From: a virus
Lineage: Duplodnaviria; Caudoviricetes
Virus record (IMG/VR): IMGVR_UViG_3300025120_000054
Location: 1-58,836 of that record
Length of the DNA: 58,836 nt
Strand: one strand, 5' to 3'
The notes below the pieces were generated by a model. It had not been told where the DNA came from. It saw only the letters and a list, made by a program, of their open reading frames with translations, and did no database searches. Every line of letters begins with the position of its first letter. Position 1 is the stretch's first letter. Below are positions 43,157-58,836 of this stretch, one piece after another. Both the position numbers and the translations under genes were made by a program.

Positions 43157-43163
43157 TATGCTA

Positions 43164-44396: not shown

Positions 44397-44407
44397 CTCT
44401 TTTCATT

Positions 44408-44740
44408 TTAATCAGCATCATAATGATCATTAAGAACTACTACTATCTTATTATCTTCTGTATAGTATCTTACAAATTGTACATAGAAAAAATCACCCAA
44501 ATCTAGGTAATCTTTACCTCTAGACATCCATTCTTTTCCTGTTTCATCATTCCATTCGCTCAAGTAGTATTGTTTATTTTCTGATTCGAAAGCCTTGGTT
44601 TCAAGAAGGCGCAAATGCTCTTGGCTTAATATTAAACATGTATCAAGTTGAGGTACAAATGGTAACTCTATAGTGATTCCATCTTTTTTCTCGAATCCAA
44701 TAGCGGGATGTAATATACAGAAGGTTATTTTATAATTCAT
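44408..44740 (-). CDS. Hypothetical protein
   Basis: ORF in operon. Confidence 0.65.
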   Translation of the reverse strand: MNYKITFCILHPAIGFEKKDGITIELPFVPQLDTCLILSQEHLRLLETKAFESENKQYYLSEWNDETGKEWMSRGKDYLDLGDFFYVQFVRYYTEDNKIVVVLNDHYDAD

Positions 44741-44835
44741 CTTCTTTGTTTTGGTTTTAATATTGCTTTAAACTTTAACCATACAATGTTAGGGTGATTT
44801 CTACACCACCAAAAAAAGTTTCTAATCTTACTCAT
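44737..44835 (-). CDS. Small basic/aromatic peptide, 32 aa (MSKIRNFFWWCRNHP...)
   Basis: Translated by hand; overlaps both neighbours. Confidence 0.5.
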   Translation of the reverse strand: MSKIRNFFWWCRNHPNIVWLKFKAILKPKQRR

Positions 44836-45031
44836 CTTTGTTTTGGTTTAGTTGTTTTACAATTGAATCAACACCCTCAATAAGGTCTACCTTCCTGCTC
44901 TTGACAAGCATTACCGCTTCATTGATTGCCTCTCTGTCTCCAATGACATAGCCGAGCTTTAGTAGAAGCTGTATAGCTTCCTGCTCCTTCTTCTTTAGTT
45001 CTCTGTAGTGTGCAAAAATTTGATTTTCCAT
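44828..45031 (-). CDS. Hypothetical protein
   Basis: ORF with A-rich leader. Confidence 0.65.
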   Translation of the reverse strand: MENQIFAHYRELKKKEQEAIQLLLKLGYVIGDREAINEAVMLVKSRKVDLIEGVDSIVKQLNQNKDE

Positions 45032-45069
45032 ATTATTTATTTTATTTGTTTTTAATTTATATTTATTTT

Positions 45070-45957
45070 TTATATACTATCATTATCCCAATTTAAATCT
45101 AACTCAGTCTGAGATCTAGCAGATAAGTCATTAATACCACACATACCATTGCAGTCAAATAGAGGTTCAACATTTCTCTCAGGCATATCATCTAAGCATT
45201 TGTTGTTAGGATACAATGGATGCTTCTTTAAGAAAACTAAATGAGCTTTCTTATCAGTCTTCATCTTTTCCTTTGCTTCATTTGACTGATCCTTTAGCAT
45301 CGTAACAGGACTACCTCTTAACTCAGTAAGCTCATGCTCTAAGTCAGACATCACCTCGAACTTTTCGGGAAAGTTCTTACGCATCTTCTGCCAATAACCT
45401 ATACCTCCTTGAACACATCCTGTTGAAAAGCAATTATTGTTTTTAAAACCTAGCTTATACATCTCAGGTATCTCAATGCCTGCTTCCTGAACTATGTCAA
45501 TGCACTTCTGTTTGTCATATCCAAGTAGAAGCAATGGGTATATAGGCTTTGCTCTATCGTAATAGTTCTTGGTCATAGACAAAGCACGAGCGAACTCCTT
45601 CTTGTCAAATTCAAATCCAAACACTTGATGTTTAAAATCATTCTTCTTCTCCCACTTCTGTCTGACCAACCTCTTTAAATGTGTAGAACATATTGCTCCA
45701 GTCGCTGTGTTAAGAGACTTGAACTTTCTCCATACGTCAAATATGTTTCCATACTTCTCACCTATCCCTGAGATAGTTTCAATAGACAATCCATACCACT
45801 GCTCACAGTCCTCCTTAAATCTATAGGTGTCGGGATGTTCATTCTTAGTATCAATCATAATGACTCTACAATTATCAACACCATACATATCAATAGCAAT
45901 CTTACACGCTACTGCTGATGTTATACCACCACTCCACCAACCAATTATCTTCTCCAT
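45070..45957 (-). CDS. PAPS-reductase-like (PP-loop) protein
   Basis: WSGGITS, CSTHLKR, YPL, NNNC..GCV.GG.GYW, C-terminal CxxxC. Confidence 0.85.
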   Translation of the reverse strand: MEKIIGWWSGGITSAVACKIAIDMYGVDNCRVIMIDTKNEHPDTYRFKEDCEQWYGLSIETISGIGEKYGNIFDVWRKFKSLNTATGAICSTHLKRLVRQKWEKKNDFKHQVFGFEFDKKEFARALSMTKNYYDRAKPIYPLLLLGYDKQKCIDIVQEAGIEIPEMYKLGFKNNNCFSTGCVQGGIGYWQKMRKNFPEKFEVMSDLEHELTELRGSPVTMLKDQSNEAKEKMKTDKKAHLVFLKKHPLYPNNKCLDDMPERNVEPLFDCNGMCGINDLSARSQTELDLNWDNDSI

Positions 45958-45960
45958 ATC

Positions 45961-48396
45961 TTAAAATTCAAAGTCGTTATTGTCTATAGTAGGACTAGCC
46001 TTGATCTTCCTAATCTTTATCCATCTACCACTCATATCACGACCCTCTTCTGGTGCGAGCTTGGTGTGGTACATACAGAAAGCGTGAAGCCATTTATAAA
46101 ATTTGGTTCGGCTCACAGTCATCTTTGCCTTGGGAGCAAAGTCAGGATTGTCTTGAATGAAATCAAAGTATAAGTCCTGCTTCAATGTCCTTGTTCCTAA
46201 TGAGAAGTTTTTAAACACCTCGTTAGGCTCATTGCCATCCACCAATCCACACCACTCTATAAACTCGTGACAAGTCTCGGCAGATAACTTACGGATGCTA
46301 AGGTTTACGAAGGTAGACTTTATCAATCCAGTGTCTAGGTATCTACTCAAGCATCGGATCATGTAGTTATCAAACTGACACCACTCATTGTCATCCCACT
46401 CACCGAACATTAACTTACCGAACTCATCCATCGGAGTGTAGTCCTTGGTATAGTATTGATTCAGCTCCAGTTCCCACTTACGTCTCTCGAAACTATTCCC
46501 AGCACCCTTGATGGCGTAGTTGGTTGTAATTGTAATCTTAGGAGACTTACTGAATGGTATCTTGATAGCGTCCTTATTCTTCTTCTCAAGCGTTAATCCT
46601 TCGGTGACCACACTAAACAACCTCTCGAAGTCAAAGTGCTTTCTAACGTCATCAAAACATAGTATCTGAGTGTCTGCACTAACCAATTGATATGCAAAGC
46701 TACGCTCAAAGTTAAATGACTTACCATCTATGACCACCAACTTCTTCAGTTGAGAGAGTGCATTCATAAACAACCCCTTCCCTGTACCTCCTTCGGGGTG
46801 ATCACTAATCACCTCATCATTAAGAATTACAGCTGGGCAATATCCCAAATCTTTATATGCGTGCATAAGAAATCCTATCGTAGACTCCATAGACTTAGCT
46901 CTCTCCTCATCCGATCCGCATATGTTGTACACAAACTTTTGAAAGTCGCACTTGACAATGTCACATATGCTAAACACCCTGTCAATCACATGGTCTTTCC
47001 AAACGTATCCACCCAGGTCTAGGTAGTCAATCATCTCCACCCCCACCTTGGTCACCTTCACTGCCGCATTGCGATAGTAAAGATAAGCAGCACTCTTGGT
47101 GTCCTCGATAAAGAACACATCAATGCTACCCAGAAGTGTCAAGAACTCCTCTCGAAAGTATCTAGTGTTATCGGCAAAGTAATTGTACACCTGAGCATCA
47201 TCCAATTCCAATAGGTATTCTAGTATAAAATCTTTGATGTCCTTCTCAGATGTATGGTCGATGAGGTTGTTAGTAACCTTTACGAACACATAGTTCTTAC
47301 TACCCTCTGGGTTGTATTTGTAGAAGCCATTGTCCTCAAGAAACTTCTTGAAAGATATGTGTACAATTTTTATTACACCCCGGTCAGACTTTGTCCAGAA
47401 CTTTTGATTGGATGTCTCTTCTTCAAGCCTGCCAATGACAGCCTCGGCTACACCATCATCAATCGAAGAGTCTAGAAGTTGATGACGGATTTCTTTTTTT
47501 GATATTCCCCTCCTCATTTGAGACTTGACAGTATTTATCTTGTCCTCATCCTCATAGTACTTTGTTCCAAACGCTTGTGTGTTTGTGTACGCAGAATCAA
47601 TAGTCCTCTTTATCTCTGAGGAATTAAAATCCTTTGTCGCATAGTTGGCTAACACATACTCAGTCAAGCTCTTGTTAACACCGAACTCATTCATAGCCAT
47701 AGCCAACACATATACGTTGTGGTTTCGTTGCCCCTCCACCATTGGATACTTTTTCTCCCACCATTTAACTAGGATGTCTACAATCTTATTCTCATCTGTG
47801 ATGGGTATGGTTGCTCGATCTTTAAACTTTACTACCTCTTTAAAGTTGTCATCCTTAATATCTGTCCATACACTAGATTGAGGATTGATATAAATTAAAG
47901 GATCATAACTCTCGTAACAAACTCGACTCACATTCTTGCTTGTCTTGTCAAAGTGTTCCGAGTTAAAGTGTTCGTCTAATGCATTGAAATAATTTTTGTG
48001 GTTGTCCCCATCGTCAGGAATCTTTACCAAGACCTTGAGTCCTTTACCAGATGGTGATATAAATATAGAGTACACATAGTTGTCCTTGCTATATAGTTCC
48101 TTTACCTCTAGCAAATCCTTCTGCTTCTTGTAGCCATCAAAGTCTAGGCATATCAATCCACTATGCTTCATCAATGATGAATCAGTTCTTTTGTTAAACT
48201 TTCCAGAGAAACATATTGCCGGGAGCTGTTGCTTTAGTTCATTGATTACTATCTTATCCTTCTCTTTTCTAATCCTCTTAATTAATTCCTTAGACGATCC
48301 TTCTTTTATTCTTTCTAAGATAAATTCTACATTTCTAAAGAATGGTTGCTCAGTAGTTTTGATGTCTCTGAATATAGTTATGTCGTTTTCTGTCAT
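45961..48396 (-). CDS. Primase-helicase (BT4734/VirE-N-like domain, PriCT-like domain, P-loop helicase)
   Basis: KQQLP, HSGLICLDFD, SPSGKGLK, GQRN, GGTGKG, FDD. Confidence 0.88.
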   Translation of the reverse strand: MTENDITIFRDIKTTEQPFFRNVEFILERIKEGSSKELIKRIRKEKDKIVINELKQQLPAICFSGKFNKRTDSSLMKHSGLICLDFDGYKKQKDLLEVKELYSKDNYVYSIFISPSGKGLKVLVKIPDDGDNHKNYFNALDEHFNSEHFDKTSKNVSRVCYESYDPLIYINPQSSVWTDIKDDNFKEVVKFKDRATIPITDENKIVDILVKWWEKKYPMVEGQRNHNVYVLAMAMNEFGVNKSLTEYVLANYATKDFNSSEIKRTIDSAYTNTQAFGTKYYEDEDKINTVKSQMRRGISKKEIRHQLLDSSIDDGVAEAVIGRLEEETSNQKFWTKSDRGVIKIVHISFKKFLEDNGFYKYNPEGSKNYVFVKVTNNLIDHTSEKDIKDFILEYLLELDDAQVYNYFADNTRYFREEFLTLLGSIDVFFIEDTKSAAYLYYRNAAVKVTKVGVEMIDYLDLGGYVWKDHVIDRVFSICDIVKCDFQKFVYNICGSDEERAKSMESTIGFLMHAYKDLGYCPAVILNDEVISDHPEGGTGKGLFMNALSQLKKLVVIDGKSFNFERSFAYQLVSADTQILCFDDVRKHFDFERLFSVVTEGLTLEKKNKDAIKIPFSKSPKITITTNYAIKGAGNSFERRKWELELNQYYTKDYTPMDEFGKLMFGEWDDNEWCQFDNYMIRCLSRYLDTGLIKSTFVNLSIRKLSAETCHEFIEWCGLVDGNEPNEVFKNFSLGTRTLKQDLYFDFIQDNPDFAPKAKMTVSRTKFYKWLHAFCMYHTKLAPEEGRDMSGRWIKIRKIKASPTIDNNDFEF

Positions 48397-48551
48397 TTTA
48401 ATGCTAATTAAATGTCAATTATATTTATTTAACTTATTGATTATCAATACTTATGTCGATTATGTCAATTTTATAGTCAGTTTGTAGTAAAAAAAACAAA
48501 GCTATAAAAGTATAATTTATATATAGTAGTGACGAATGTTTTTTCGGCATA
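48388..48551. promoter_or_regulatory. Iteron/IHF-like element copy B overlapping the primase-helicase start
   Basis: Same motif order and spacing as 961-1130. Confidence 0.6.
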
Positions 48552-48580
48552 AAGAAAAGAGGGGTAACCAAAAACCCCTC
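48552..48580 (-). terminator. Rho-independent terminator after SSB gene
   Basis: GAGGGGT-loop-ACCCCTC followed by TTTTCTTT on - strand. Confidence 0.8.
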
Positions 48581-48601
48581 CTCTTTACTACCAATTTAAA
48601 T

Positions 48602-48892
48602 TTAAAATGGTAGTTCCTCTTTGTCCTCATTCAACGTGGTTGGAACTTCTTGCTTCGGCTCAGCCTTCGGTTCTGACTTTGCCTCTGGTTTATAAGTATC
48701 GATGCTCACATGATGGGTTTTACCATACTGATCTGCACCATCCTTTTTTGTACCCACATTTAACTTGGTGTACTTCTTACCGTTATACTCAAAGATATGT
48801 TCCTTTGGTATGTCTGTAAGACACAGACTTACTGATATTAAGTTATCAAAAACTTGTTTACCATTTCCTACGAAAATTTTATCTTCCGCCAT
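48602..48892 (-). CDS. Probable single-stranded DNA-binding protein
   Basis: OB-fold-sized, DQYGKTH, acidic tail ending EELPF; near annealase/exonuclease. Confidence 0.7.
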   Translation of the reverse strand: MAEDKIFVGNGKQVFDNLISVSLCLTDIPKEHIFEYNGKKYTKLNVGTKKDGADQYGKTHHVSIDTYKPEAKSEPKAEPKQEVPTTLNEDKEELPF

Positions 48893-48910
48893 AAATTATA
48901 ATTTAAAAAA

Positions 48911-48968
48911 TTGCCTCTGATTAAAGAAGTCTACACCCTGGACAGAGGACAACCCAAGGATCAGACTA
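48911..48968 (-). promoter_or_regulatory. Structured (pseudoknot-capable) 5' leader of SSB gene
   Basis: CCTTGG/CCAGGG stem whose loop CCTCTG is complementary to downstream CAGAGG. Confidence 0.5.
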
Positions 48969-48971
48969 TTA

Positions 48972-49436
48972 TTAATTATTAAATGTCAATTTGTATTTAG
49001 AATATACGTCATTGTTTAGATGAGTCATGGTCATCGTATACATGCCTTCTTCTTTAATTGTACTTATAAATTGTTCGTACTCTACACCTTCAAAGTAAAT
49101 CATCCCATCTATACAAAAAGCCTCAATCGGACTTACCTTTCCTGATGGAGTTTTTATTATTGTCCATTGAAATGTTTCGTACTTCCATGCCACTGCTTCT
49201 GATTTTTTGTAAGGGTAAATAGTTATTGCAAATGTTTTATCTAATATATCATGCTCTAAAAAATAGCTACATGGTTTATTTTTCTTTCTGCCTCTACTAA
49301 ATTTACCCACAGCATCTTGATATAAAAATATATCACCTGTTTCATTATCGTTCTCGTCCACATAATCTCCTACTTCCCATTGAGAATATAGCGTAACTGA
49401 TAGCATCATCGATGCAAATAAAAATAATTGTTTCAT
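48972..49436 (-). CDS. Secreted protein with Bacteroidetes-style signal peptide
   Basis: MKQLFLFASMMLSVTLYS-QW. Confidence 0.7.
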   Translation of the reverse strand: MKQLFLFASMMLSVTLYSQWEVGDYVDENDNETGDIFLYQDAVGKFSRGRKKNKPCSYFLEHDILDKTFAITIYPYKKSEAVAWKYETFQWTIIKTPSGKVSPIEAFCIDGMIYFEGVEYEQFISTIKEEGMYTMTMTHLNNDVYSKYKLTFNN

Positions 49437-49440
49437 AAGA

Positions 49441-50196
49441 TTAAATTAATTCTTGTTGAATAATAAAATGCTCAGGGTCGTGGGTAGGACTTTCCCCCCA
49501 GAATTTTTCATACTGATCTAAGGCGGTCATCACCTTTTCCCTTCCTCCCTGAATGAAGGTGTCAGTTGGTGGAAATATTCCAAGATTGTGCGTCTGCTTA
49601 TCAACCACATAAAACACCAATGGCTTACCAAATATTTGTTGGTAGATGTAGCACTGGCTGTCGTAGTTGTATCGCTTTGCGGATCGTGGAAAGTTTTGAA
49701 TGTCACTCGTAGTCTTCAAATCGATGATGAAATTATTGGTGATGATATCTGCTTTACCCTTCCACCATACACCTCTGATTTTCTCTACCCCAGGAACTTC
49801 ATAAGTATTACCCGGTTCATATATGTCATCAAAGAATCTTATGTTGGACTTCATTGCCGACACCCATTCCATACATTCGCCTTGCTCCTTGGAAAGTAAT
49901 AACATCTCCTCAGAACTCTCATCAACCGCCTCCTTGTATAGTTTTGTGTTGCGACTTGCAACATCAATTACTTTATAGAGTCCAGTCTTGTTAGGCTCAA
50001 GCATTGCAGTATGAAAATATCTACCCAACAACATCGCCTTAGTCTGCTCAGTTGGCTTACCAAAATCCTTTGGGTTATTCAACAACACATCAACATTGGA
50101 GTTGGATAAAAACTTGCGTCCATACTCACCATAGTATTGGTCATCATTCTTCAGAACTTTCTTGACCTCTAGAAGCTCTTGCTCTGTGAACTGCAT
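49441..50196 (-). CDS. PD-(D/E)xK exonuclease (DUF3799 / RecE-like)
   Basis: LSNS, G..FH...LEP, KGKADI, IDLKTT, Y..Q..IY. Confidence 0.85.
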   Translation of the reverse strand: MQFTEQELLEVKKVLKNDDQYYGEYGRKFLSNSNVDVLLNNPKDFGKPTEQTKAMLLGRYFHTAMLEPNKTGLYKVIDVASRNTKLYKEAVDESSEEMLLLSKEQGECMEWVSAMKSNIRFFDDIYEPGNTYEVPGVEKIRGVWWKGKADIITNNFIIDLKTTSDIQNFPRSAKRYNYDSQCYIYQQIFGKPLVFYVVDKQTHNLGIFPPTDTFIQGGREKVMTALDQYEKFWGESPTHDPEHFIIQQELI

Positions 50197-50804
50197 TACT
50201 TCTTAATGCTTTTCATATATGAACTAATCTCCTTCTTTGCCTTCGCAGTTATGGTATACTTCTGACCTAGTTCTTTGGTGATTTGTGCTAGTGTCTTGCT
50301 GCTATTGTTTGCAATGTAAGCCAACACTCTCTCCATGTTTGGTGTACCTACCTCAAGAGTGACTAACTTCTTTTCCTCTACCTCTTTCGGAACTTCAATG
50401 GACAAGTCCTCTCCCGTCCACAACGATAAACCTATTCCATGCATCGCAATGGCTTTAGCTGTAGATCGTTGAATTGTCTTGTTCACATCGAACATATTCA
50501 CCTTGTCTACGGGTATTGCATTGTTACGAAAGTCCATGATAGGTAGGTAGTCAATATGCTCAATACCATTTGCAACTACACCGACCTTCACATAACAAGT
50601 GCGACCATCAGTAAAATAATTTAACCCTGTATGTTCATGCTCATACACTTTTCTTTGTGCATCAGGGCAATGGGTTTTTAATAAATCCCACGCAGAGGCC
50701 CAACTAATGTAGGACTGTGCGCCTTTCTTTTCAATGAAGCCTTTTACGTCAACGCTTTTGAGCGTCTCATAGGTAGACTTTACCTGTGTTTTTGTATTTG
50801 ACAT
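50196..50804 (-). CDS. Single-strand annealing protein (Sak/Rad52-like, DUF1071)
   Basis: EKKG..SYISWA.AW, LPIMDFRN, QR...KAIAMHGIGL....GED. Confidence 0.85.
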   Translation of the reverse strand: MSNTKTQVKSTYETLKSVDVKGFIEKKGAQSYISWASAWDLLKTHCPDAQRKVYEHEHTGLNYFTDGRTCYVKVGVVANGIEHIDYLPIMDFRNNAIPVDKVNMFDVNKTIQRSTAKAIAMHGIGLSLWTGEDLSIEVPKEVEEKKLVTLEVGTPNMERVLAYIANNSSKTLAQITKELGQKYTITAKAKKEISSYMKSIKK

Positions 50805-50808
50805 TTGA

Positions 50809-51204
50809 TTATAATTTACTTATTTGTTTGACAACCTTTAAGTAGCTGTCCATTATTCGTTGACGAGATGTTTTTAAACTTTTAAGGTGCTTATCATTTC
50901 GCCTTGTATTTACCTCATCCCTTATGTTGTCTGATATTCTAGATAGCTTATGCTGGTATGAATCTAATACTAATTTTAGCACTCCCTTGCGCCATCCATG
51001 TTTACATATGACATCATATTCATATGACCGAAGCTCCTTGTATACCTCCCCCATTGGTTTGTATATGTGAATTTGGTGCTTTTTATCGGACTCAATCTTA
51101 AATCCCTTGTAAACCAGGCACTCAGTATTTTTGTATGCATCCACCATGTGGAAGGCATCATGTTGACCGAAGGCATCGTCCCATATTTCGTCTAGTCTAC
51201 ACAT
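50809..51204 (-). CDS. Hypothetical protein
   Basis: ORF in operon. Confidence 0.65.
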   Translation of the reverse strand: MCRLDEIWDDAFGQHDAFHMVDAYKNTECLVYKGFKIESDKKHQIHIYKPMGEVYKELRSYEYDVICKHGWRKGVLKLVLDSYQHKLSRISDNIRDEVNTRRNDKHLKSLKTSRQRIMDSYLKVVKQISKL

Positions 51205-51503
51205 GAAGCAATGTGTTTAGCAACTGTTCTTATATCTCCATCGCTTCTCATTTTCTTCAGCATTGTAGTGTGGTGATGGATGATCGTAGAATGTGGTGTT
51301 GGCAACCCCATTTCTTCCATAAAATTTTCAATGTGCTTAATGCGAATTTTTCTTTTTACGCACAAGTAAAATAGCATCTGTCTAGCATCCGCTATCCTCC
51401 TTTGTTTTGTTTTAGAAAACATTTCTTCTTTAGATATTCCATGCGTCTTACAAACTTGAGACACATAATCCTTGAAGACCTTACCTTCTTGTAGATAAAT
51501 CAT
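51192..51503 (-). CDS. DnaA C-terminal-like HTH protein
   Basis: SKTKQRRIADARQMLFYL...HSTIIH. Confidence 0.75.
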   Translation of the reverse strand: MIYLQEGKVFKDYVSQVCKTHGISKEEMFSKTKQRRIADARQMLFYLCVKRKIRIKHIENFMEEMGLPTPHSTIIHHHTTMLKKMRSDGDIRTVAKHIASCVD

Positions 51504-51529
51504 ATTACTTTATTTTATTTAATTTATAG

Positions 51530-51606
51530 AGGGTATGAGGGGAATCGAACCCCCCTGTACCTCGCAGATTATTAAACCAGAAAACAAATCATTCTGCAAA
51601 TACCCT
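51530..51606 (-). ncRNA. tRNA-like RNA (acceptor stem and T arm; no D or anticodon arm)
   Basis: AGGGTAT/ATACCCT 7-bp stem, GGGGG-TTCGATT-CCCCT, single TTGCAGA/TCTGCGA arm. Confidence 0.65.
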
Positions 51607-51669
51607 AAACTATTATGAACATTTAAAACTACACAAATTATATCATTTGTACAAATCTTTTCTATAAAA

Positions 51670-52464
51670 TTATAGTTGTGACTCAGATAATTCCCATAGC
51701 ATTTTATTTATTCTGAGATTCTCATCGATGGATGTTACCTTTCTGGATTTGCTGTAGATAATTTTATCCCCATCCTTTCTGGTGGTATCTAATCCTCCAT
51801 TGATTAACTTCTCCTGTACCCTGTTAAATACAGTCCATAGATCGTTTCCTTTGTCGGCTGACCTATTTACTTTTAAAAGTTGTTCAATGTCTACAGCACG
51901 ACCATCATTCCATCTCTTGTTTACTGACTCAATACCAAACTTAAATCTTTCTTCAGCAGACAATTCAACAGACATCATTTCTTTTACTTTGTCAAACAAG
52001 CTGGGTATGTTGGATGTAATTTTGTCTACCGTTTCTATGATGTCAGTCTCCTTCAATCCCTTGTGGATGATTGTATGTTTGCCGAAAGTTTTGTCTGCAA
52101 TTACAAGCCCATTAGAACACACCAAACGAAAGAGTCCAATGTGAAATTTAAACGCTGACCGGCCATCATGTGAATTAGTTACCACGATCTCCGGGCAAGT
52201 GTCGCTAGACATTTCTGTATTTGAAAACATTTTGTTTGGGTTTCGAAATCTCAGGATGTGTTTTTTGAACGGAGCTGTATGCTCATTTCCTTTTCTGTTT
52301 CGTACCTGGATTGCATGTGTAGGCATCCAGTTTCTTTTCTTTAAAATGTCTACCACAGATGCAGTTGATATGTGGTTGTAGACTTTTGACAAGTGTTCTG
52401 ACTGTTCATTAGTGAACACTGAAGGGCATTCCTCCATGATTTGATTTGATTGTAAATAATCCAT
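51670..52464 (-). CDS. DUF932/DUF945 family protein
   Basis: KHILRFR, NSHDG, GLFRLVCSNGL, LWTVFNRVQE. Confidence 0.88.
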   Translation of the reverse strand: MDYLQSNQIMEECPSVFTNEQSEHLSKVYNHISTASVVDILKKRNWMPTHAIQVRNRKGNEHTAPFKKHILRFRNPNKMFSNTEMSSDTCPEIVVTNSHDGRSAFKFHIGLFRLVCSNGLVIADKTFGKHTIIHKGLKETDIIETVDKITSNIPSLFDKVKEMMSVELSAEERFKFGIESVNKRWNDGRAVDIEQLLKVNRSADKGNDLWTVFNRVQEKLINGGLDTTRKDGDKIIYSKSRKVTSIDENLRINKMLWELSESQL

Positions 52465-52465
52465 T

Positions 52466-52804
52466 TCAATTGATTTGTGAGGATGTGTTTTTTTTTCCTC
52501 TGGTTTGTTTTCTTTGCACCCACTTTGAGTACATTTTACTTGCTATCGCTAACCTTTGTGGTCGGAACGCATAGTTTCTTTTGATGATAGACATAGCTAT
52601 CCTTACAAAGTTTTCTCTTTCGTTACCTCCTCTTGGTCTTACATAATAGACTTCTCCATCTAATCCGTAGTCACAAGTCCATCCGATATGTTCGAGTTCT
52701 TTTTGTATTCGATGACACTCCTCGTATAGATTCTCATTGTCATCGTAGGTATCTACTATTGCTTTAACTTCCTGCGGAAAGTTATCGTATTCTATTTCTG
52801 TCAT
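52466..52804 (-). CDS. Hypothetical protein
   Basis: ORF in early operon. Confidence 0.65.
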   Translation of the reverse strand: MTEIEYDNFPQEVKAIVDTYDDNENLYEECHRIQKELEHIGWTCDYGLDGEVYYVRPRGGNERENFVRIAMSIIKRNYAFRPQRLAIASKMYSKWVQRKQTRGKKNTSSQIN

Positions 52805-53085
52805 TGGTTTAATTTAAATTCAAGTTGAATAAGTATTTCTGTTTTGTTCTCCAGATTCTTACCATGCGAATCGCCATTCTCGTCATATGTCGGTTGAATG
52901 TTGCTAGGCATGTAGTAATTGTCTCTGGTTGTAGTGCGTGTAATCTCATCGTTAAAGCCATTGAAGGAGACATTACGCTCTCTGGTATATCTCTGGACTT
53001 CAATGTCCGCACTATATTGATAGCCATGCACCCAAAAGAGTACATGACCATCGTGTAATTCATCATCGTAGAAGATAGCTTTCAT
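52801..53085 (-). CDS. Hypothetical protein
   Basis: ORF with ATGA coupling. Confidence 0.65.
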   Translation of the reverse strand: MKAIFYDDELHDGHVLFWVHGYQYSADIEVQRYTRERNVSFNGFNDEITRTTTRDNYYMPSNIQPTYDENGDSHGKNLENKTEILIQLEFKLNQ

Positions 53086-53087
53086 GA

Positions 53088-53603
53088 TTACTTTAGATTA
53101 ATTGAGTAATGATTGTGGCCTATCTCCAGTACGTCATCCTCAGACATATTGTATATGTCCCAGTTGAACTCAGAGTCTTGCTTTGCAATCTCCTTTATCT
53201 TTGCAATAGCTTCACTTCTGGAGTACTCAAATGTACCCTCAGCATGACCAGAGTCAATGTATGTCTCTGGTTCAATGCCTCTGTCTTTGCGCCACTTCGC
53301 AAACTCTTTGTCTGTCATCACTTCGTATCCCATCCACCCTTCAGCACTTTCAACACCTTTCATGTAGGCATCCAGCTCCGCTTGAGAATTGAAAGACTGA
53401 TGATCTAATTCAGCATCATCCTCTGGAGACGAACCCCAGAGAATTTTGACATCAAAGGTTTCATCAACAGTCTCTGTGACTGTCATCCTTTGTTTCTTGG
53501 CCTCTGCTTCCAGCATAGGTAAGCATTGGTTATACAATTCTTCGGTCTCAAATGTAGCGACCAATTCAGCATGTAAATAGCTTTCAAAATATACTCGTAC
53601 CAT
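53088..53603 (-). CDS. Hypothetical acidic protein
   Basis: ORF in early operon. Confidence 0.7.
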   Translation of the reverse strand: MVRVYFESYLHAELVATFETEELYNQCLPMLEAEAKKQRMTVTETVDETFDVKILWGSSPEDDAELDHQSFNSQAELDAYMKGVESAEGWMGYEVMTDKEFAKWRKDRGIEPETYIDSGHAEGTFEYSRSEAIAKIKEIAKQDSEFNWDIYNMSEDDVLEIGHNHYSINLK

Positions 53604-53606
53604 ATC

Positions 53607-54152
53607 TTATAATTTAATTTTGATTTCACAAATGTCTCCATCAGCATCCCTTCTACCCTTCACTTCGTATACGCCATCGCCATACTTCGTTCCAAAAACA
53701 ACACCTAAACCGTATCCTAGCTGAAACCTTTTGTTTAGATGCGTATGACATGCACCACCAAAATTGAAATCTCCAATTTCATAATCTGATTCAGAGAATT
53801 CTTCCCATCCCTTTTCATAGCGCAGTTCATTCATGCACTTACCATTAAATTCATCTAATGGTGTACTCCAAGTAATTATCTTACCATCAATCTTATCAAA
53901 GCATCCTAACTTACGACCATCAGATATTCTTACAATACCGTTTCTAAAACTATAGTTATTGTTAAATTCAACCTTCTTCAACATCTTTGAAGCCATTGTG
54001 TCGGCATCAATTTTACCCTCTTTAAAGTCTCGTAATAACTTGTGGATGTCTAGCATTCCACTAAACTGTTTTGCGTAACATGGGTCAATTACCATCAATG
54101 CCCCAGAGTCTACTCCGCATTCGCCAATGCGCTCAAATTTTCGTGTGTTCAT
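53607..54152 (-). CDS. DUF4241-like protein
   Basis: GVDSG.LMVIDPCY and TKYGDGVYEV; ATG 54152 preferred. Confidence 0.65.
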   Translation of the reverse strand: MNTRKFERIGECGVDSGALMVIDPCYAKQFSGMLDIHKLLRDFKEGKIDADTMASKMLKKVEFNNNYSFRNGIVRISDGRKLGCFDKIDGKIITWSTPLDEFNGKCMNELRYEKGWEEFSESDYEIGDFNFGGACHTHLNKRFQLGYGLGVVFGTKYGDGVYEVKGRRDADGDICEIKIKL

Positions 54153-54287
54153 AATAAATTTTATTAAAGTTTTATACCACCAAAAGCCGACCACTATTTC
54201 AAGGCCAGCTATTGTGGGAATTATATAATTAGTTTAATTTCCGTTCACTAAAGTATACATTCTTTTTCTATTAAGCAAATTTAGATC

Positions 54288-54539
54288 CTAATCATAGATT
54301 GGGAAATCAACATTGTGTCCTCTGTGAATGAATGAATTGTGTATCTCCTCATCCATCTCAATGCGTATCTCAATCTCTTTGTCTTTGAACATTCCAATAA
54401 GTCCTTGCAAATCAAAATGCTTACCATTGATGTTGTCATCATCTATAGGGCATAAACTCTCAATGGTTTCTTTATAAATTCTAAGAGCATCTACAACGAT
54501 GTCTTGTTGTTCTTGGGGTAGTTTAATTGTGTATTTCAT
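54288..54539 (-). CDS. Hypothetical protein
   Basis: ATG 54539 abuts upstream stop. Confidence 0.6.
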   Translation of the reverse strand: MKYTIKLPQEQQDIVVDALRIYKETIESLCPIDDDNINGKHFDLQGLIGMFKDKEIEIRIEMDEEIHNSFIHRGHNVDFPIYD

Positions 54540-54540
54540 G

Positions 54541-54729
54541 TTACCAGTTTTTTGCTTGTGAATATGCTTTGTCAAAGTTTCTTTCCATCCCTTCACTTAG
54601 GGGTGCTTGAAACCTTCCTTGCATATAATTTTCATTCGTCTTGTAAAAGTTTCCTTTTAGCTTCATAAGGATTTTTTTATCCTTGATAAAGTACGTTGCG
54701 TTTTCGCTTTTATAAATTCCGTTCTGCAT
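54541..54729 (-). CDS. Hypothetical protein
   Basis: ORF in early operon. Confidence 0.65.
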   Translation of the reverse strand: MQNGIYKSENATYFIKDKKILMKLKGNFYKTNENYMQGRFQAPLSEGMERNFDKAYSQAKNW

Positions 54730-54731
54730 TT

Positions 54732-54950
54732 CTATTTGTTTTTATCGGTTACTAAAAAGTCATTGTATTTCAATGACCCACTTACTATGTACTCATATAT
54801 CTCCTCCTTGTAAGCATGTTCCATCACGATGGATTTACCTTCCTCAGATTCTAAATTTAAAACGTATAACTTACGATCCTCATTCTTCTCATTCATTGGT
54901 TCTACCACTCCCGATAAAACCATGCATATAAAAATAATTTTTGTTAACAT
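54732..54950 (-). CDS. Hypothetical protein with hydrophobic N-terminus
   Basis: ORF in early operon. Confidence 0.6.
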   Translation of the reverse strand: MLTKIIFICMVLSGVVEPMNEKNEDRKLYVLNLESEEGKSIVMEHAYKEEIYEYIVSGSLKYNDFLVTDKNK

Positions 54951-54952
54951 CT

Positions 54953-55048
54953 CTATTTATTTTTAATTTGACAAATCCTTCGGTACAATCCATAATCAAA
55001 GTTGTTCCAATAGTCTATCCAATCTGCTATGTTAGTTGTGTTTCTCAT
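54953..55048 (-). CDS. Small protein, 31 aa (MRNTTNIADWIDYW...)
   Basis: Translated by hand; fills gap with 2-bp spacers. Confidence 0.6.
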   Translation of the reverse strand: MRNTTNIADWIDYWNNFDYGLYRRICQIKNK

Positions 55049-55050
55049 TG

Positions 55051-55236
55051 CTATTGTTTTAAGTTTCTAACCTTATCATATTCGATTAACAAAGAATCTA
55101 CTTTGTTTTGATATTCGTTTGTTAGTTTATTTATCTCAATATCAATCTTACGTCTTTGGTGTAGTTGTTCCTTTGTAAGAATCATTCCACATGATGTAAG
55201 TAAACTTATTACTATTAATGTTGCTATCTTTTTCAT
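55051..55236 (-). CDS. Small lipoprotein
   Basis: MKK-hydrophobic-LLTSC lipobox. Confidence 0.7.
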   Translation of the reverse strand: MKKIATLIVISLLTSCGMILTKEQLHQRRKIDIEINKLTNEYQNKVDSLLIEYDKVRNLKQ

Positions 55237-55238
55237 TT

Positions 55239-55562
55239 CTATTTGTTTTTATTGTATTGGTTTATAAATTCTACTACTTGTGCGTACACTATGTCTATAT
55301 CACAAGTGAATAGCGTGTCCATAATGTTATCCCATTCGTATGTGTCATCTCCTGCCTGAAAGCATTTCTTTACAACAGGCATCAACCAATTCCACGATTT
55401 GTGGTATTGTAGTTCGTGTACCTCGTAAAACTCTATTCTTATGTCGTTTAATTTAATAGGGCTTTGTTCTTTCCTAGCATAAACAAACAAACCCTCAAGG
55501 GTTTCTTCAAGTTCTAGACCCATAAATTCTGCTATCATTTTATTGTTTTCTTGATTGCTCAT
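55239..55562 (-). CDS. Conserved phage protein (NKMIAEFMG...YHKSWNWLMPVV)
   Basis: Motif typical of Bacteroidetes phages. Confidence 0.75.
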   Translation of the reverse strand: MSNQENNKMIAEFMGLELEETLEGLFVYARKEQSPIKLNDIRIEFYEVHELQYHKSWNWLMPVVKKCFQAGDDTYEWDNIMDTLFTCDIDIVYAQVVEFINQYNKNK

Positions 55563-55569
55563 TTTACTT

Positions 55570-55719
55570 TTAGTTTAAGTGAGATAACTTTATCTCGTTA
55601 ATAAATTTCTTTGCTTCTCCAGATGTTTTAAATGCATGTACTGAGATTGGTCTGTGGATGCTAATCACATGCACCATCCAGAGTAATCCACAAGGATTAA
55701 ATAATTCAAATTCGTTCAT
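55570..55719 (-). CDS. Small protein, 49 aa
   Basis: Translated by hand (MNEFELFNPCG...); AT-rich leader. Confidence 0.5.
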   Translation of the reverse strand: MNEFELFNPCGLLWMVHVISIHRPISVHAFKTSGEAKKFINEIKLSHLN

Positions 55720-55814
55720 AATAATTAATTAAAATTGTGCAAAGCAATATGCCTTGCACCCGAAAACCCCAAGCGTAATTAAACTACTTGGGGCGTTGAG
55801 ATTGGATGTGAATC

Positions 55815-55910
55815 CTACATCAGATAGTTAACTAAAATGTATCCAGATGCACCACATAAAATCCCACATGATGTTGACAATAAAACCAGTCTTGAAATCT
55901 TAATTCTCAC
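55815..55910 (-). CDS. Small hydrophobic peptide, 31 aa (GTG start)
   Basis: MRIKISRLVLLSTSCGILCGASGYILVNYLM; 3 bp after upstream stop. Confidence 0.4.
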   Translation of the reverse strand: MRIKISRLVLLSTSCGILCGASGYILVNYLM

Positions 55911-55913
55911 GAT

Positions 55914-56621
55914 CTAATGATTTAGGATGTAAATGGATTTCTTTCCTTTACCAGATGTTCCAGAACACAATCCACATTTAGAACAGCTAGATTTGTATCC
56001 AGATTCTTTACTAGCTGGACAATTTATGTACTGGCCTAGCTTTCTCTCTGTAGCAATAAAACTCCTGTATCCAAATTTCTCCGCTTTTAACTGTTGTGCT
56101 GGAGTATGTGTTGAGGCCATAAAGAAACGCCCTAAGGATTTATTTCGATGCCATTGATGAGTATACCCTGTCCAATTATCACATGCCTTTACAACGTCTT
56201 CAATTAATTCAACAGGATGTAACGATGGTTCGCCATATGTCCCAAAACGAACGAACGTGTTCTGAGACATGTCTATGATGCTGTTATATATCTTTTGATT
56301 GAATGTAGGTATATTCTCAAACGTCTTATACTCTTTTACAATTGAGCGCAACATACTTTTGAATCCTACATACTGGTTAAACTTATGCGTATAGCATAAG
56401 CCAAAACTATTAAATGGACAATCCATACAATTGGAATCCGCTTTATTGAAGAAATTCTTCATTCCAGATTCATCTTTTAAAATGCTCTGGAGCTGTGCTA
56501 AACTGAAGGTATACGTTTGCACAATTTTACGTTTCTTGTCGGATTCTATCTTGTCATTAGATGTCGTACCTAATCTGAATACTTGTATTGTATCCTTGTC
56601 TCTGAAAGTTACTCTTTTCAT
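55914..56621 (-). CDS. Cys-rich Gp88-like protein (possible Fe-S)
   Basis: C.DCP...CY, RFGTYGEP, WTGYTHQW, CP...CSKCGLC. Confidence 0.7.
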   Translation of the reverse strand: MKRVTFRDKDTIQVFRLGTTSNDKIESDKKRKIVQTYTFSLAQLQSILKDESGMKNFFNKADSNCMDCPFNSFGLCYTHKFNQYVGFKSMLRSIVKEYKTFENIPTFNQKIYNSIIDMSQNTFVRFGTYGEPSLHPVELIEDVVKACDNWTGYTHQWHRNKSLGRFFMASTHTPAQQLKAEKFGYRSFIATERKLGQYINCPASKESGYKSSCSKCGLCSGTSGKGKKSIYILNH

Positions 56622-56630
56622 GTCTCTGGT

Positions 56631-56807
56631 TTATCTGGTTCTAAATAATAATTGCTCTTGTCTCTTAGCATATCTACCAGATGGTGTTCTGGATGCTAAC
56701 ATTCTGCATTTTGCTTCCTTCAAAATACGCATGTGCTGAATGGATTTTTGCCCATTGTAATCGAATGCTTTTGTTCTTAATCTGTTAACTAATTTTTGGT
56801 AATTCAT
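56631..56807 (-). CDS. Small basic protein, 58 aa, directly downstream of the hammerhead
   Basis: Translated by hand (MNYQKLVNRLRTKAF...). Confidence 0.6.
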   Translation of the reverse strand: MNYQKLVNRLRTKAFDYNGQKSIQHMRILKEAKCRMLASRTPSGRYAKRQEQLLFRTR

Positions 56808-56821
56808 AACATTTTATATTT

Positions 56822-56884
56822 GGTTAAGACATCCCCGATTCACATCGGTAATGTTTCGGATACTGAATCCATCTTCAGTTAACC
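56822..56884 (-). ncRNA. Hammerhead ribozyme (type I)
   Basis: GGUUAA-CUGAAGA-U-GGAU(UCAGU)AUCC-GAAA-CAU..CCGAU(GUGA)AUCGG..AUG-UC/UUAACC: full core and three stems. Confidence 0.9.
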
Positions 56885-57370
56885 TTCCTTCTCCAGCAAA
56901 ACCGTATGCAATGTCACTGGTGTATGTGGTACAGGGGTTTGGCCTCCATGAAAACCTATGATGTTGAAATCATCTTTACCGTTGTGATATTTGACATCAA
57001 CACAGGTATTAAAGAGAACACTGAACGTGATTAATTCGCCATTACTGGTCTTTATACTAATCGTCTCTGATTTGTCAGTACATTCAATGTATGTATGCTT
57101 ATGCTGGGCATTGAATACTGCGAATCCTTTTACCTCTCCTATGATGGTGTTTAACGTATATTTGAAATCGTCTCCTACCGTTTCATCATGGCTTAGGATG
57201 TTTCCGAATACATCTGGACAAATATCCGTATCTGGTTTGTTGATGTAGTTAACGAATTCTCTTAGATTGCGTACCGTAGCAGTATAGTTACGATTCATCT
57301 GGATATGGAATCCGTTTTTAGCATTATAGTCTTCCAGATGCGCTGGAAATCGCTTTGTTGATTTGTTCAT
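56879..57370 (-). CDS. Hypothetical early protein
   Basis: ORF; its stop codon forms part of hammerhead stem I. Confidence 0.7.
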   Translation of the reverse strand: MNKSTKRFPAHLEDYNAKNGFHIQMNRNYTATVRNLREFVNYINKPDTDICPDVFGNILSHDETVGDDFKYTLNTIIGEVKGFAVFNAQHKHTYIECTDKSETISIKTSNGELITFSVLFNTCVDVKYHNGKDDFNIIGFHGGQTPVPHTPVTLHTVLLEKEG

Positions 57371-57392
57371 TTCTTTGTTTTTGTTGTTGTTA

Positions 57393-57533
57393 TTATTTAG
57401 TTTCTACTAACTCTTCTATCTCCTCAAGTACATCGTACATCTCGCTTCTTACATTTCCATCTGATACGTTGTCTTGTATTAAGTAGTACATTTTTTTAGT
57501 TAATTCTTCTAGTGTTAATTCTTTAGTTGTCAT
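57393..57533 (-). CDS. Small acidic protein, 46 aa
   Basis: Translated by hand (MTTKELTLEELTKKM...). Confidence 0.6.
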   Translation of the reverse strand: MTTKELTLEELTKKMYYLIQDNVSDGNVRSEMYDVLEEIEELVETK

Positions 57534-57780
57534 TGTGTGTTTTTAGATCGTTGTTTTTTTCCATCTGGTTAAGCAGATTTTCAATGCTCTCCAGATGCTT
57601 CTGGATTCCCGTATAACTTTCTTCTGTTGCATCATCATTGGCTAATGTAAATGATTCTTCATTCAGCACAATGCAGTCAATTGTCTGCGAGATATCATCT
57701 ACCCAAAGCGCAGTGCTATTCTTGTCAATTGCATCCAGTAATCCCTTTACCAGATGTACTAATTCTTCCTGTTTTTTCAT
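57523..57780 (-). CDS. Hypothetical acidic early protein
   Basis: ORF in early operon. Confidence 0.65.
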   Translation of the reverse strand: MKKQEELVHLVKGLLDAIDKNSTALWVDDISQTIDCIVLNEESFTLANDDATEESYTGIQKHLESIENLLNQMEKNNDLKTHNDN

Positions 57781-57790
57781 ATGGTTTATT

Positions 57791-58012
57791 TTATGTTAAC
57801 GATTCAAATGTAATATCTCCATCTTCGCTCCATAACACTTGGTACAATTCTGTCCATGTGCTAATTTCATTTATCATGTATACATCGTCTTCAGTATACC
57901 TGTATAATGCGTACTCTTTCGTAATATGGATTTCTTCTCCAGATTCGATTCGTTTTAACTGGTCAATGGTAATTGAATCCAGTACTTTGTCTAATTGTGA
58001 TTCGTGTTTCAT
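57791..58012 (-). CDS. Hypothetical acidic early protein
   Basis: ORF in early operon. Confidence 0.65.
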   Translation of the reverse strand: MKHESQLDKVLDSITIDQLKRIESGEEIHITKEYALYRYTEDDVYMINEISTWTELYQVLWSEDGDITFESLT

Positions 58013-58084
58013 AATATGTGTTTTTTTTAACCAGAAATGCCCGTATTTATTTCAGTACGGGCCTCTGGAGAAAATCAGCTGATT

Positions 58085-58330
58085 TTAATCGGTTACATAC
58101 ATCTTTTCGCGCTCTGGATTAGCAGTGTTCAAATATGTATGCAAAACAGTCTTAACTTGCTCTGCTGAGAACAATCCAAATGACTGCGCTCCAGATTCAT
58201 TTAAAGCATCTAATCTTCGCTCTAATGCATCAGCTATTTCAATGGTTAATATTGTAGATGCGATTGCACCTAAATTCTGCACATCTTTGTGCGCCTTTCT
58301 TAACTTCTGGTCATTGTTTAATCTACTCAT
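58085..58330 (-). CDS. Hypothetical early protein
   Basis: ORF in early operon. Confidence 0.65.
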   Translation of the reverse strand: MSRLNNDQKLRKAHKDVQNLGAIASTILTIEIADALERRLDALNESGAQSFGLFSAEQVKTVLHTYLNTANPEREKMYVTD

Positions 58331-58347
58331 TTTGTTCTGGTTTTTGG

Positions 58348-58584
58348 TTATAATTTTTTGTATAATCTGTTAATAAAATCTACTTCGTGTTCCTGTACCA
58401 TTAAATGTCCAGGATGAATATACTCTCCATGCAACATAGATGGTGTTCTTTTTAATGCCCATTTCAAATCTTCAATGTGGGATTCTACTTCCTTTCTGCT
58501 TCTGGTTAAAAATGCTTTCTTACTTGCATTTGTCGAATATTCCTTAAGAGTATTCGTGTAAAAATCAACGGTTTCTTGCCTCAT
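58348..58584 (-). CDS. Hypothetical early protein (first gene of - arm)
   Basis: ORF directly after consensus promoter. Confidence 0.7.
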   Translation of the reverse strand: MRQETVDFYTNTLKEYSTNASKKAFLTRSRKEVESHIEDLKWALKRTPSMLHGEYIHPGHLMVQEHEVDFINRLYKKL

Positions 58585-58614
58585 AATTAATTTTGTTTTC
58601 GTTCATATATGGTA

Positions 58615-58645
58615 CAAATATAGTCTAATTCTTTATATAAACAAA
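58615..58645 (-). promoter_or_regulatory. Consensus Bacteroidetes promoter TTTG-N19-TATATTTG (early promoter)
   Basis: -33 at 58645-58642, -7 at 58622-58615. Confidence 0.8.
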
Positions 58646-58709
58646 CATGTGCGCTCCAGTATAATATATACACCAGTATAAAATCATGCTCAAAGCCAGT
58701 AATAACCAA

Positions 58710-58836
58710 CGTTTTAGAATCAAATGAAATAATTTCAAATTGTACCAGAATTGTTAAAGGTGACCAGAGGCCTCTGCTGGTGTTACCAGATGTCTCTCCA
58801 TCTGCGCTGGAAGGGAAGGCCTTCCCCTAGAAACCA
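58710..58836. repeat. Terminal 127-bp direct repeat, copy 2
   Basis: Identical to 1-127. Confidence 0.95.

Follow-up and report, generated by a model that had tools for sequence, protein, structure and literature searches.

A short CCAGA-based word saturates the early gene module of a marine phage and may mark it as an array of binding sites

What could a phage gain from one short DNA word repeated, on both strands and in every codon frame, through a whole block of small early genes? The question is raised by a tailed-virus genome (Duplodnaviria; Caudoviricetes; IMG/VR record IMGVR_UViG_3300025120_000054) that we analyzed over its full 58,836 nt, hereafter the window; this genome is designated G000, related genomes are numbered G0xx, and related viral or metagenome loci Lxxx. 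The record is complete in the window, whose last 127 nt (58710-58836) are a copy of positions 1-127 that represents assembly overlap, and the genome is a circular assembly of 58,709 nt. Rightward genes, from about 500 to 41,077, encode groEL, groES, an amidase, structural proteins, a 1516-aa protein, and an open reading frame (ORF) of 3351 aa. Leftward genes run from 58,584 down to 41,074, and about 580 nt of non-coding DNA separate the two arms. The leftward arm opens with about 25 small ORFs (58,584 down to 51,670), mostly of unknown function, and it is here that the pentamer CCAGA, or TCTGG on the other strand, accumulates. The CCAGA-rich early module comprises 51655..58709, assigned to neither strand and holding the approximately 25 small minus-strand ORFs, together with 1..356 on the plus strand, the module's share of the divergent non-coding control region. 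Its limits are the breakpoints of homology with the related locus L125, in which, as in L109, this share of the control region is replaced along with the early genes.

The first-pass annotation of this DNA had counted about 32 CCAGA/TCTGG by hand across the junction of the circle, about 12 of them the heptamer CCAGATG/CATCTGG, and both counts are exact: 28 pentamers lie in 55619-58709 and 4 in 1-160, with the 12 heptamers at the places it gave. Its expectations from base composition, about 4 pentamers and under one heptamer, become 3.8 and 0.21 on calculation, and groEL (1191-2828) holds a single CCAGA/TCTGG, as it had stated. Measured against the rest of the genome, the enrichment in the 3.6-kb region is far higher, with 33 CCAGA where 3.7 are expected (p about 2e-20), 18 CCAGAT against 0.43, and 12 CCAGATG against 0.10. 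Each of the three ranks first in enrichment among the tested k-mers of its length, and by scan statistic CCAGA comes second among 5-mers, behind a poly-A/T run at 4.3 kb. What did not hold was the extent first given to the domain, which is larger and reaches from about 51655 to 356 with 46 sites. Over this whole module of 7,411 nt the module's own composition predicts 8.8 sites; CCAGAT occurs 19 times against 2.7 expected and CCAGATG 12 times against 0.5. Outside the module CCAGAT is scarce, at 5 copies against 11.7 from a Markov model and 20.2 from composition.

Several lines of evidence support the conclusion that selection on this motif acts at the DNA level and is specific to the region, namely codon shuffles, independence of strand and frame, conservation above that of control 5-mers, and equal richness in non-homologous cassettes; the annotation's proposal of such selection stands on the same grounds. 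Nine coding sequences contain 23 sites, a number reached in none of 2000 shuffles of either type, whether codons were exchanged synonymously (n = 2000; mean 7.3, maximum 15) or permuted in order (n = 2000; mean 5.1, maximum 14). Codon shuffling, which the annotation had named as able to overturn its claim, leaves the enrichment standing. The 46 module sites fall 20 in sense orientation, 16 antisense, and 10 in non-coding DNA, with codon phases of 15/11/10, and all three frames are already occupied within the interval described by the annotation. The word recurs about every 100-160 bp, on either strand, through roughly 7 kb of small early genes. Pooling 133 sites of unique context from 10 related modules gives the consensus W-CCAGA-D, with W before the core in 122/133 and D after it in 129/133, so that C follows the core in only 4/133. 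The favored 8-mers are WCCAGATG (34) and WCCAGAGA (21); in the pooled modules CCAGT is likewise in excess, and CCAGG hardly occurs.

The strand balance of the 46 sites is even (23+/23-), and the orientations are mixed both in 4-kb bins and along the module, which bears directly on the proposal in the first-pass annotation that these might be Chi-like sites attenuating a host RecBCD/AddAB-type nuclease on entering DNA. Escherichia coli Chi contains CTGG. The word is likewise short, is G/T-rich on one strand (CATCTGG), and contains CTGG, and its cluster lies near a possible genome end. The lack of polarity, however, counts against that proposal, and the elimination of CCAG/CTGG by sister phages, described below, is the opposite of what protective Chi sites would predict, so that we give it only the slightest chance. 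Like Chi, KOPS, and uptake sequences, the word is a short oligomer that DNA-level selection has made over-abundant, within genes too, but those oligomers are genome-wide, and Chi and KOPS are polar, whereas this one is regional and shows no polarity.

The spacing of the sites hints at some order. Among pooled same-orientation pairs, 16/31 lie 9-11 or 19-22 bp apart where 6.2 are expected (p 9e-5), and in G000 alone 5/9 do so (p 0.02), in both cases in bins chosen post hoc; this helical-phase spacing is suggestive only. Close neighbors are co-oriented in 59 cases and opposite in 35. Both inverted pairs pointed out by the annotation (57591-57604 and 56677-56692) are present; as a general arrangement, hairpins were rejected, since the same 35 opposite and 59 same-orientation neighbors show no preference for inversion.

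The sites are densest on the promoter side of the module. A candidate promoter of the leftward early operon lies at 58615..58645 on the minus strand (TTTG-N19-TATATTTG) and fits a Bacteroidota-type consensus; it is the sole full match to that consensus on either strand within 50001-58709 plus 1-1500. Just upstream of it, from 58646..58709 into 1-170 on the plus strand, comes the most CCAG-dense stretch, with 10 CCAG/CTGG in 234 nt, 8 of them on the plus strand, including three CCAGTA(T/A)AA repeats. Within the control region (1-356), CCAGA stands at 36, 55, 77, 151, and 337, always on the plus strand, and the related genome G004 has two sites inside the stretch homologous to the promoter. Two clusters, neither assigned to a strand, can be distinguished among the early genes. 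The promoter-proximal one, 55619..58709, is the interval first annotated and has 28 sites with WCCAGATG dominant, and the promoter-distal one, 52499..54107, has 11 sites, 9 of them CCAGAG, all of which (11/11) are conserved in G004. The rightward half of the control region (170-520) is rich in G+C and in purines, and from 357 on it is kept in the lineage that lacks the motif; GACGGGG and AGCAGAGGGG(A/G)AG-type repeats occur at about 240-350 and a run of GCGCGAGCGCGCGCG at about 452-466.

The first-pass annotation had asked whether related phages enrich the same k-mer or a different one. Nine related contigs are equally rich in the same word in the same block, at 5.2-11.3 sites per kb (G004, L127, L130, L137, L134, L129, L126, L135, and L131), and many of their cassettes are non-homologous. 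Eight of these (L126, L127, L129, L130, L131, L134, L135, and L137) were identified as members of the clade by a groEL scan of metagenomes (groEL identity at least 79%) and have 7.0-11.6 sites per kb, counted upstream of the conserved control region over 3.5 kb or over as much of that as the locus contains. Where G004 shares DNA with the window, the two are 92-97% identical; its early block is mosaic, with 25 sites over 3.2 kb, many of them in cassettes without homology to the window. Beyond the clade the word is infrequent: 17 more distant family loci (groEL 55-60%) have 0-0.9 sites per kb, and 13 family loci on viral contigs have 0.3-1.9, except for one with 2 sites in 696 nt, the two collections overlapping in part in that some loci occur in both. 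No comparable word enrichment was found in the same region of G001-G003.

Within the clade the sites are also conserved. Aligned sites are intact in 125/146 cases against 418/596 for control 5-mers of the same composition (Fisher p 1e-4; the pairs compared are not phylogenetically independent). Relative to G004, from 52.0 kb to 400, 1/125 motif nucleotides have changed against 192/3,539 at other positions, and only 2/6 sites outside that interval are kept. By these alignments the sites are under purifying selection.

A contrast comes from the close lineage represented by L125, a 61-kb contig, and L109. Both have 83-97% identity to the window on either side, and the whole block 51,655..356 between is replaced. 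The exchange takes in the early genes and their leftward promoter as well as that half of the control region in which CCAG is dense; their alternative block has 0 CCAGA in 3.5 kb, in a genome, that of L125, otherwise near-identical over the 21.6 kb covered. The motif state is therefore bimodal and is a property of the module rather than of particular genes. The same lineage differs from the window at two unlinked places: it is missing an 86-aa ORF, and its allele of the DnaA domain IV-like gene is divergent, although this is one lineage (n = 1).

One gene of the module allows the gain of sites to be followed. The 235-aa Cys-rich protein (PHROG 2554) at 55914..56621 on the minus strand is the only module gene that G000 shares with the distant relatives G001-G003, to which it is 61-68% identical. 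At its 5 CCAGA/TCTGG sites the gene differs from those relatives synonymously in 2 cases and non-synonymously in 3, one of the differences being GAA -> TCT. These changes bear on a non-functional explanation, in which the excess would come from biased repair, a very-short-patch-like conversion of CTAG to CCAG, or from the compositional legacy of an acquired module. CTAG is indeed half as frequent inside the module as outside (1.62 against 3.06 per kb) where CCAG is raised (10.1 against 3.0 per kb), and the module is mosaic and horizontally exchanged. The deficit of about 11 CTAG nevertheless cannot supply an excess of about 47 CCAG (75 against 27.5 expected), the bias is specific to W-CCAGA-D rather than to all CCAGN, the sites are conserved above controls, the word is present in all the unrelated cassettes, and the 235-aa gene gained its sites through amino-acid changes that include a change of all three bases of a codon. 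We regard such an origin as highly improbable.

The exchange of cassettes suggests another possibility, that the sites are short homology or nuclease-entry signals promoting shuffling in this hyperplastic early region. The region is highly mosaic, with swaps of whole genes, and several breakpoints lie 0-25 bp from a site (median about 23 bp against about 38 expected; n = 13, compared by hand). This proximity is not significant, however, the breakpoints coincide with gene boundaries anyway and most sites lie within genes, and the phage encodes a general recombinase pair, one member Sak-like and the other RecE-like, so that there is very little to recommend sites of this kind as the explanation.

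The reading we favor, tentatively and at somewhat less than even confidence, is that the WCCAGAD words form a putative array of binding sites for a DNA-binding factor specific to the module. It is favored because the sites are selected, confined to the module, independent of strand and frame, conserved, dense on the promoter side, perhaps partly phased, and exchanged with the module. In such an array, WCCAGATG and WCCAGAGA would be the cis-acting recognition sites of a sequence-specific factor that treats the early module as a unit, and the array would begin in the control region beside the leftward promoter and run through about 7 kb of small early genes. Its likely purpose would be to mark the block for collective regulation, whether shut-off or silencing of early transcription or the assembly of a nucleoprotein domain. 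Both the protein that reads the sites and the consequence of the reading are inferred from the genomes compared here.

A first candidate for that protein lies at the edge of the module. Downstream of the small ORFs the leftward arm encodes a DnaA domain IV-only helix-turn-helix (HTH) protein, a Sak-like annealase, a RecE-like exonuclease, and a primase-helicase, and further a PAPS-reductase-fold protein, an SNF2 helicase, and an exonuclease. The first of these, a protein of 103 aa at 51192..51503 on the minus strand, matches Pfam Bac_DnaA_C (E 5.9e-9; 36.3 bits, cut-off 31.5) and the NCBIfam model of the DnaA C-terminus, and its gene abuts the module; a sequence search of the PDB with it gave no match at E up to 0.01. 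In L125 the gene forms an island of 57-60% nucleotide identity between flanks of 81-98%, and this island of allelic divergence coincides exactly with the lineage lacking the motif, which counts in favor of a binding array. The protein is conserved across the phage family, with highly divergent alleles (31-48% identity). The motif core TCCAGA differs at one position from the DnaA-box core TCCACA. A passage in PMC5043019 gives the DnaA box as TTWTNCACA and describes boxes of 5 to 7 bp; the motif fails as a DnaA box, having G where position 8 of the box is C, and positions 1-3 are not conserved. As the binder this protein is a long shot, and a small early protein or one delivered by the virion are alternative candidates.

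Binding-site arrays are familiar from plasmid iterons and the ori/crr octamers of phage P4. Like these and like clusters of DnaA boxes, the array consists of a short asymmetric word repeated many times in either orientation, with some neighbors one or two helical turns apart, the control region densest, a DNA-binding gene of the DnaA domain IV type adjacent, and a core one base off the DnaA box. Unlike a compact origin or operator, it has 46 sites spread over 7.4 kb, mostly in coding sequence, and it is unlike DnaA-box systems in the change of box position 8 from C to G and in the absence of an initiator AAA+ domain, binding being only predicted here. The p6 protein of phi29 reads bendability, and TF1 of SPO1 reads DNA containing hydroxymethyluracil (hmU) at few sites. 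Both are phage proteins that organize early-region DNA and repress early promoters, as is proposed for the factor here; neither resembles it in its sites, for which the module offers a dense word of 6 to 8 bp running through coding sequence.

If the module is marked by a protein, the behavior of more distant relatives toward the core of the word is all the more puzzling. The complete sister genome G001 (64,114 nt; L004-L007) contains 0 CCAG/CTGG against a Markov expectation of 263, and depletion is also seen in G002 (203 against 392) and G003 (110 against 183); G006 has 0 CCAG in 11.1 kb, and G007 has 0 CCAGH and has kept only 12 CCAGG. In L111, L113, and L114, CCAG ranks first to third among the most depleted of 120 asymmetric 4-mers of the early module, at 0.13-0.43 of expectation there and 1.2-1.7 from groEL onward. 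Because sister phages purge CCAG, some of them only in the early module, an agent that reads CCAG, most simply restriction, acts on the phage family and hardest on its early modules. The clade of the window does the opposite, with an excess of the motif where its relatives deplete the core. CCAGA is itself a documented Type IIS m5C specificity of Neisseria meningitidis, according to a passage in PMC7973814, and together with the purge of the core this keeps the first-pass suggestion of a link to defense alive as a lead.

Phage genomes avoid restriction sites above all in DNA that is early or enters first; examples are the first-step-transfer DNA of T5, T7, and staphylococcal phage K. The sister phages resemble such cases in avoiding the same core word, L111, L113, and L114 only in the early module; the difference is that G000 and its clade have a 5-fold excess, with conserved sites, in the same region. 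As a separate observation, several words are absent from the whole G000 genome, namely GGACC/GGTCC (expected 28), ACGGC (15), CGACG (14), CGCCG (13), GAGCAC (16.5), and GGTACC (8), and GATC and CATG occur at about half of expectation, a typical signature of avoidance of multiple restriction systems.

The main rival to a binding array is that an enzyme of the restriction-modification or hypermodification type acts on the sites and that the early module is a densely modified patch, either protective or serving as a timer that separates incoming from newly replicated DNA. The enzyme could be a phage GNAT of the Mom family, an SspD-like enzyme, or a host CCAGA/CCAG system. A word that is short, asymmetric, usable in either orientation, and without obligatory pairing would suit such an enzyme, the Type IIS specificity above is a precedent for CCAGA itself, and the CCAG purge by sister phages shows a CCAG-reading agent in the family. 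Two genes of G000 add to the case. Inserted between groEL and groES, at 3193..3639 on the plus strand, is a 148-aa protein of the XF1762 family that matches Pfam Mom (E 4e-11; 43.4 bits, cut-off 27.1) and NCBIfam XF1762 (E 2e-63), and the best PDB match of its AF2 model (pLDDT 88.5) is Mu Mom, 8bv8 (E 7e-9, TMq 0.80); by Pfam and by predicted fold it belongs to the Mom family. A literature search for "XF1762" gave no match. A PAPS-reductase-fold protein at 45070..45957 on the minus strand (PHROG 424, E 5e-49; Pfam PAPS_reduct, E 4.6e-7) has as its best match in the defense library PADLOC SspD (E 1.2e-9), and G004 and G005 carry its gene, which G001 and G002 lack. The Mom-like and SspD-like genes thus occur together in the enriched genomes G000 and G004 and in the distantly related, CCAGA-rich G005, and not in the complete genomes G001 and G002. 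Mu Mom modifies A in the context SAS/SASNY, as a passage in PMC13219725 has it, and the C-A-G-A-T of the motif fits this context.

Other evidence runs against such an enzyme. L127 and L130 align on both sides of the Mom-like ORF and miss exactly 3193-3639, and L131, L134, and L135 also lack it at the groEL-groES junction; all five Mom-less loci are CCAGA-rich (7-11 sites per kb), the gene possibly lying elsewhere in these incomplete contigs. G006 and G007 conversely have a Mom-like gene and yet avoid CCAG. An HTH-like insertion at about residues 175-209 of Mu Mom is described in the same source (PMC13219725) as essential for DNA modification, and the 148-aa protein is without this insertion of about 35 aa, having between its last strands only an 18-aa basic loop (122-139, pLDDT about 61). 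Profile libraries found no methyltransferase or other Ssp components among the ORFs scanned. Added restriction sites should be a liability, and any helical-phase spacing would be unexpected for the targets of an enzyme. Among 78 Mom-bearing viral loci, scanned if at least 12 kb long, the top clusters of SAS words were tandem or coding repeats, and a general link between Mom and such clusters was rejected, as was Mom as an obligatory partner of the motif, given the CCAGA-rich metagenome loci with no Mom-like ORF at the junction. We demoted the Mom lead because of the Mom-minus rich loci, the Mom-plus phages that avoid CCAG, the missing insertion, and the lack of clusters in other Mom-bearing contigs; the gene looks like a dispensable single-gene indel, at most an accessory, which may cover a liability made by the sites. 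Altogether a modified patch strikes us as unlikely, if a serious contender. In two of the Mom-bearing viral contigs, L034 (880-1673) and L091 (2863-3511), AGCGAGCCA is repeated about 20 times on a single strand, with a period of exactly 36 bp and variable 27-bp spacers.

Clusters of modification sites that act as epigenetic switches are known from the GATC sites at oriC read by SeqA, the hexamers of P1 pac, and the Mu mom promoter. The module is like these in concentrating a modification-type word at a regulatory region, in a genome with a Mom-family gene and with a C-A-G that fits SAS. It is unlike them in having an asymmetric rather than a palindromic word, a much larger domain, a candidate writer that can be dispensed with, and a reader that is only hypothetical.

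Returning to the binding array, a number of points weigh against it. Its binder is only predicted, and most sites lie inside genes far from any promoter, which is unusual for operators. The spacing bins were picked after G000 and G004 had been viewed, diverged homologous pairs may have been counted twice, and opposite-orientation pairs show no phasing (5/23 in the bins). The recognition helix of the DnaA domain IV-like protein (HSTIIH) is nearly the same in the alleles of motif-free phages, and the CCAGA-rich G005 has a very different allele (32% identity). An array of binding sites alone also leaves unexplained both the purge of the core CCAG by sister phages and the co-occurrence of the Mom-like and SspD-like genes in G000, G004, and G005 but not in G001 or G002.

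A broader possibility is distinctly unlikely. W-CCAGA-D, placed about every 100-160 bp in coding and non-coding DNA alike, may be a swappable DNA "address code" by which a cognate reader or writer treats the module as a unit. The core would be the object of an arms race, erased by sister lineages, in some from the early module alone, and accumulated in the module by this clade, with, in some strains, an added cover of Mom-type adenine modification. If true, this would be a new cis-encoded, module-wide signal between early gene control and anti-restriction, and different from an ordinary set of operator, origin, Chi, or restriction-modification sites.

The first-pass annotation had also imagined a role at DNA entry, with the sites on the probably first-injected end loading an ejected protein. 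They would then be loading or protective sites for a virion-delivered protein, perhaps the 3351-aa ORF or other cargo, that coats the first-entering DNA. The genome does encode a muzzle-like protein of the crAss type and, in the virion arm, a giant ORF of 3351 aa, the array is dense, independent of orientation, and confined to the early block, and selection on CCAG is strongest in the early modules of the family. Nothing shows, however, that this block enters first: the assembly is circular with no ends seen, and the contigs of 4 public runs placed on the genome, with 252 variant places, show module swaps but give no molecule ends, which contigs cannot show. No motif for DNA binding or polymerase activity can be detected in the giant ORF, which has no conserved counterpart in G001 or in data of the G004 type, and L125 combines its motif-free module with a genome that is otherwise near-identical over the 21.6 kb covered. 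Coating by a virion protein is accordingly an improbable explanation. The 3351-aa ORF itself (31022-41077) has no Pfam, PHROG, or PDB sequence match, and the 1516-aa protein (22347-26897) has a crAss muzzle-like N-terminus; by sequence, the two point to a crAss-related tail in a 59-kb genome. DFDxD is the catalytic motif of the crAss-like virion RNA polymerase (bioRxiv 10.1101/2020.03.07.982082), and the giant ORF was rejected as a crAss/N4-type virion RNA polymerase for want of a family, a PDB match, and D[FYW]DxD.

Each of the nearest known systems, iterons and weak DnaA boxes, GATC clusters, Chi-type sequences, and site avoidance, differs from this module in a defining respect. Among the papers listed by a literature search with literal terms, none describes an early module of a phage so filled with one short word, and we know of no module saturated in this way. 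No part of a phage genome is less understood than its early region, and defense and counter-defense are decided there. Here selection keeps a word of 6 to 8 bp through an entire early module, overriding the choice of codons and even of amino acids; in at least ten environmental strains it has outlasted the exchange of cassettes, and it contains exactly the 4-mer that relatives purge. Were a protein to read the word, this would be a new means of regulating or shielding an entire block of genes, and the word would help to find that protein; were an enzyme to write on it, the module would be a natural case of regional DNA hypermodification. Either way, the word is a simple sequence marker of module type in uncultured marine phages of the Bacteroidota type, and the contrast between purging and saturation amounts to a directly testable evolutionary experiment.

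Two further genes were compared among these genomes. An 86-aa, strongly acidic ORF (net charge about -14; 2932..3192, plus strand) is found in 7/7 CCAGA-rich genomes or loci in which the groEL-groES junction is covered, and L125 and L109 lack it; neither Pfam nor NCBIfam gives a match, and the protein atlas gives viral hypothetical clusters only. The last gene of the module, at 51670..52464 on the minus strand, encodes a 264-aa DUF932-like protein (protein atlas DUF932 clusters 0.97-0.98; PHROG 12094); G004 and L127 have this gene and L125 does not. Searches of the early ORFs with Pfam, PHROG, NCBIfam, and PADLOC returned almost nothing but unknowns, Rfam and tRNA scans of the whole window had no matches, and a DNA search of phage GenBank found no close relative. 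Parts of the genome are contained in 24 public runs from 10 studies, all marine, seawater, or estuary metagenomes, with no RNA datasets listed among them.

Other words are unevenly distributed in some related loci. The enriched words of L125, L140, L163, and L198 were rejected as equivalents of CCAGA, being one-stranded (coding or start-codon words) or reflecting depletion elsewhere in the locus. In L140, CGAAT/ATTCG occurs 16 times (8+/8-) in the early 7 kb (3001-10000) and 0 times in the other 6.1 kb, where about 12 are expected; it is purged from the late part and not from the early part. The early region of G001 (L001) has a weaker local enrichment of ATGCG/CGCAT, on both strands, with 31 copies against 16.7 in dinucleotide shuffles (0/200 reach 31). 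The 235-aa protein of the module has the cysteine patterns CxxC...C and C-X12-CxxCxxC. Environmental variants of 52000-58836 in four public runs consist of whole-gene cassette swaps in which small intergenic islands are conserved: the stretch between 57372 and 57789 is replaced by 441-447 other letters, that between 58345 and 58588 is skipped, and that between 53269 and 53449 is deleted, with 8 letters between.

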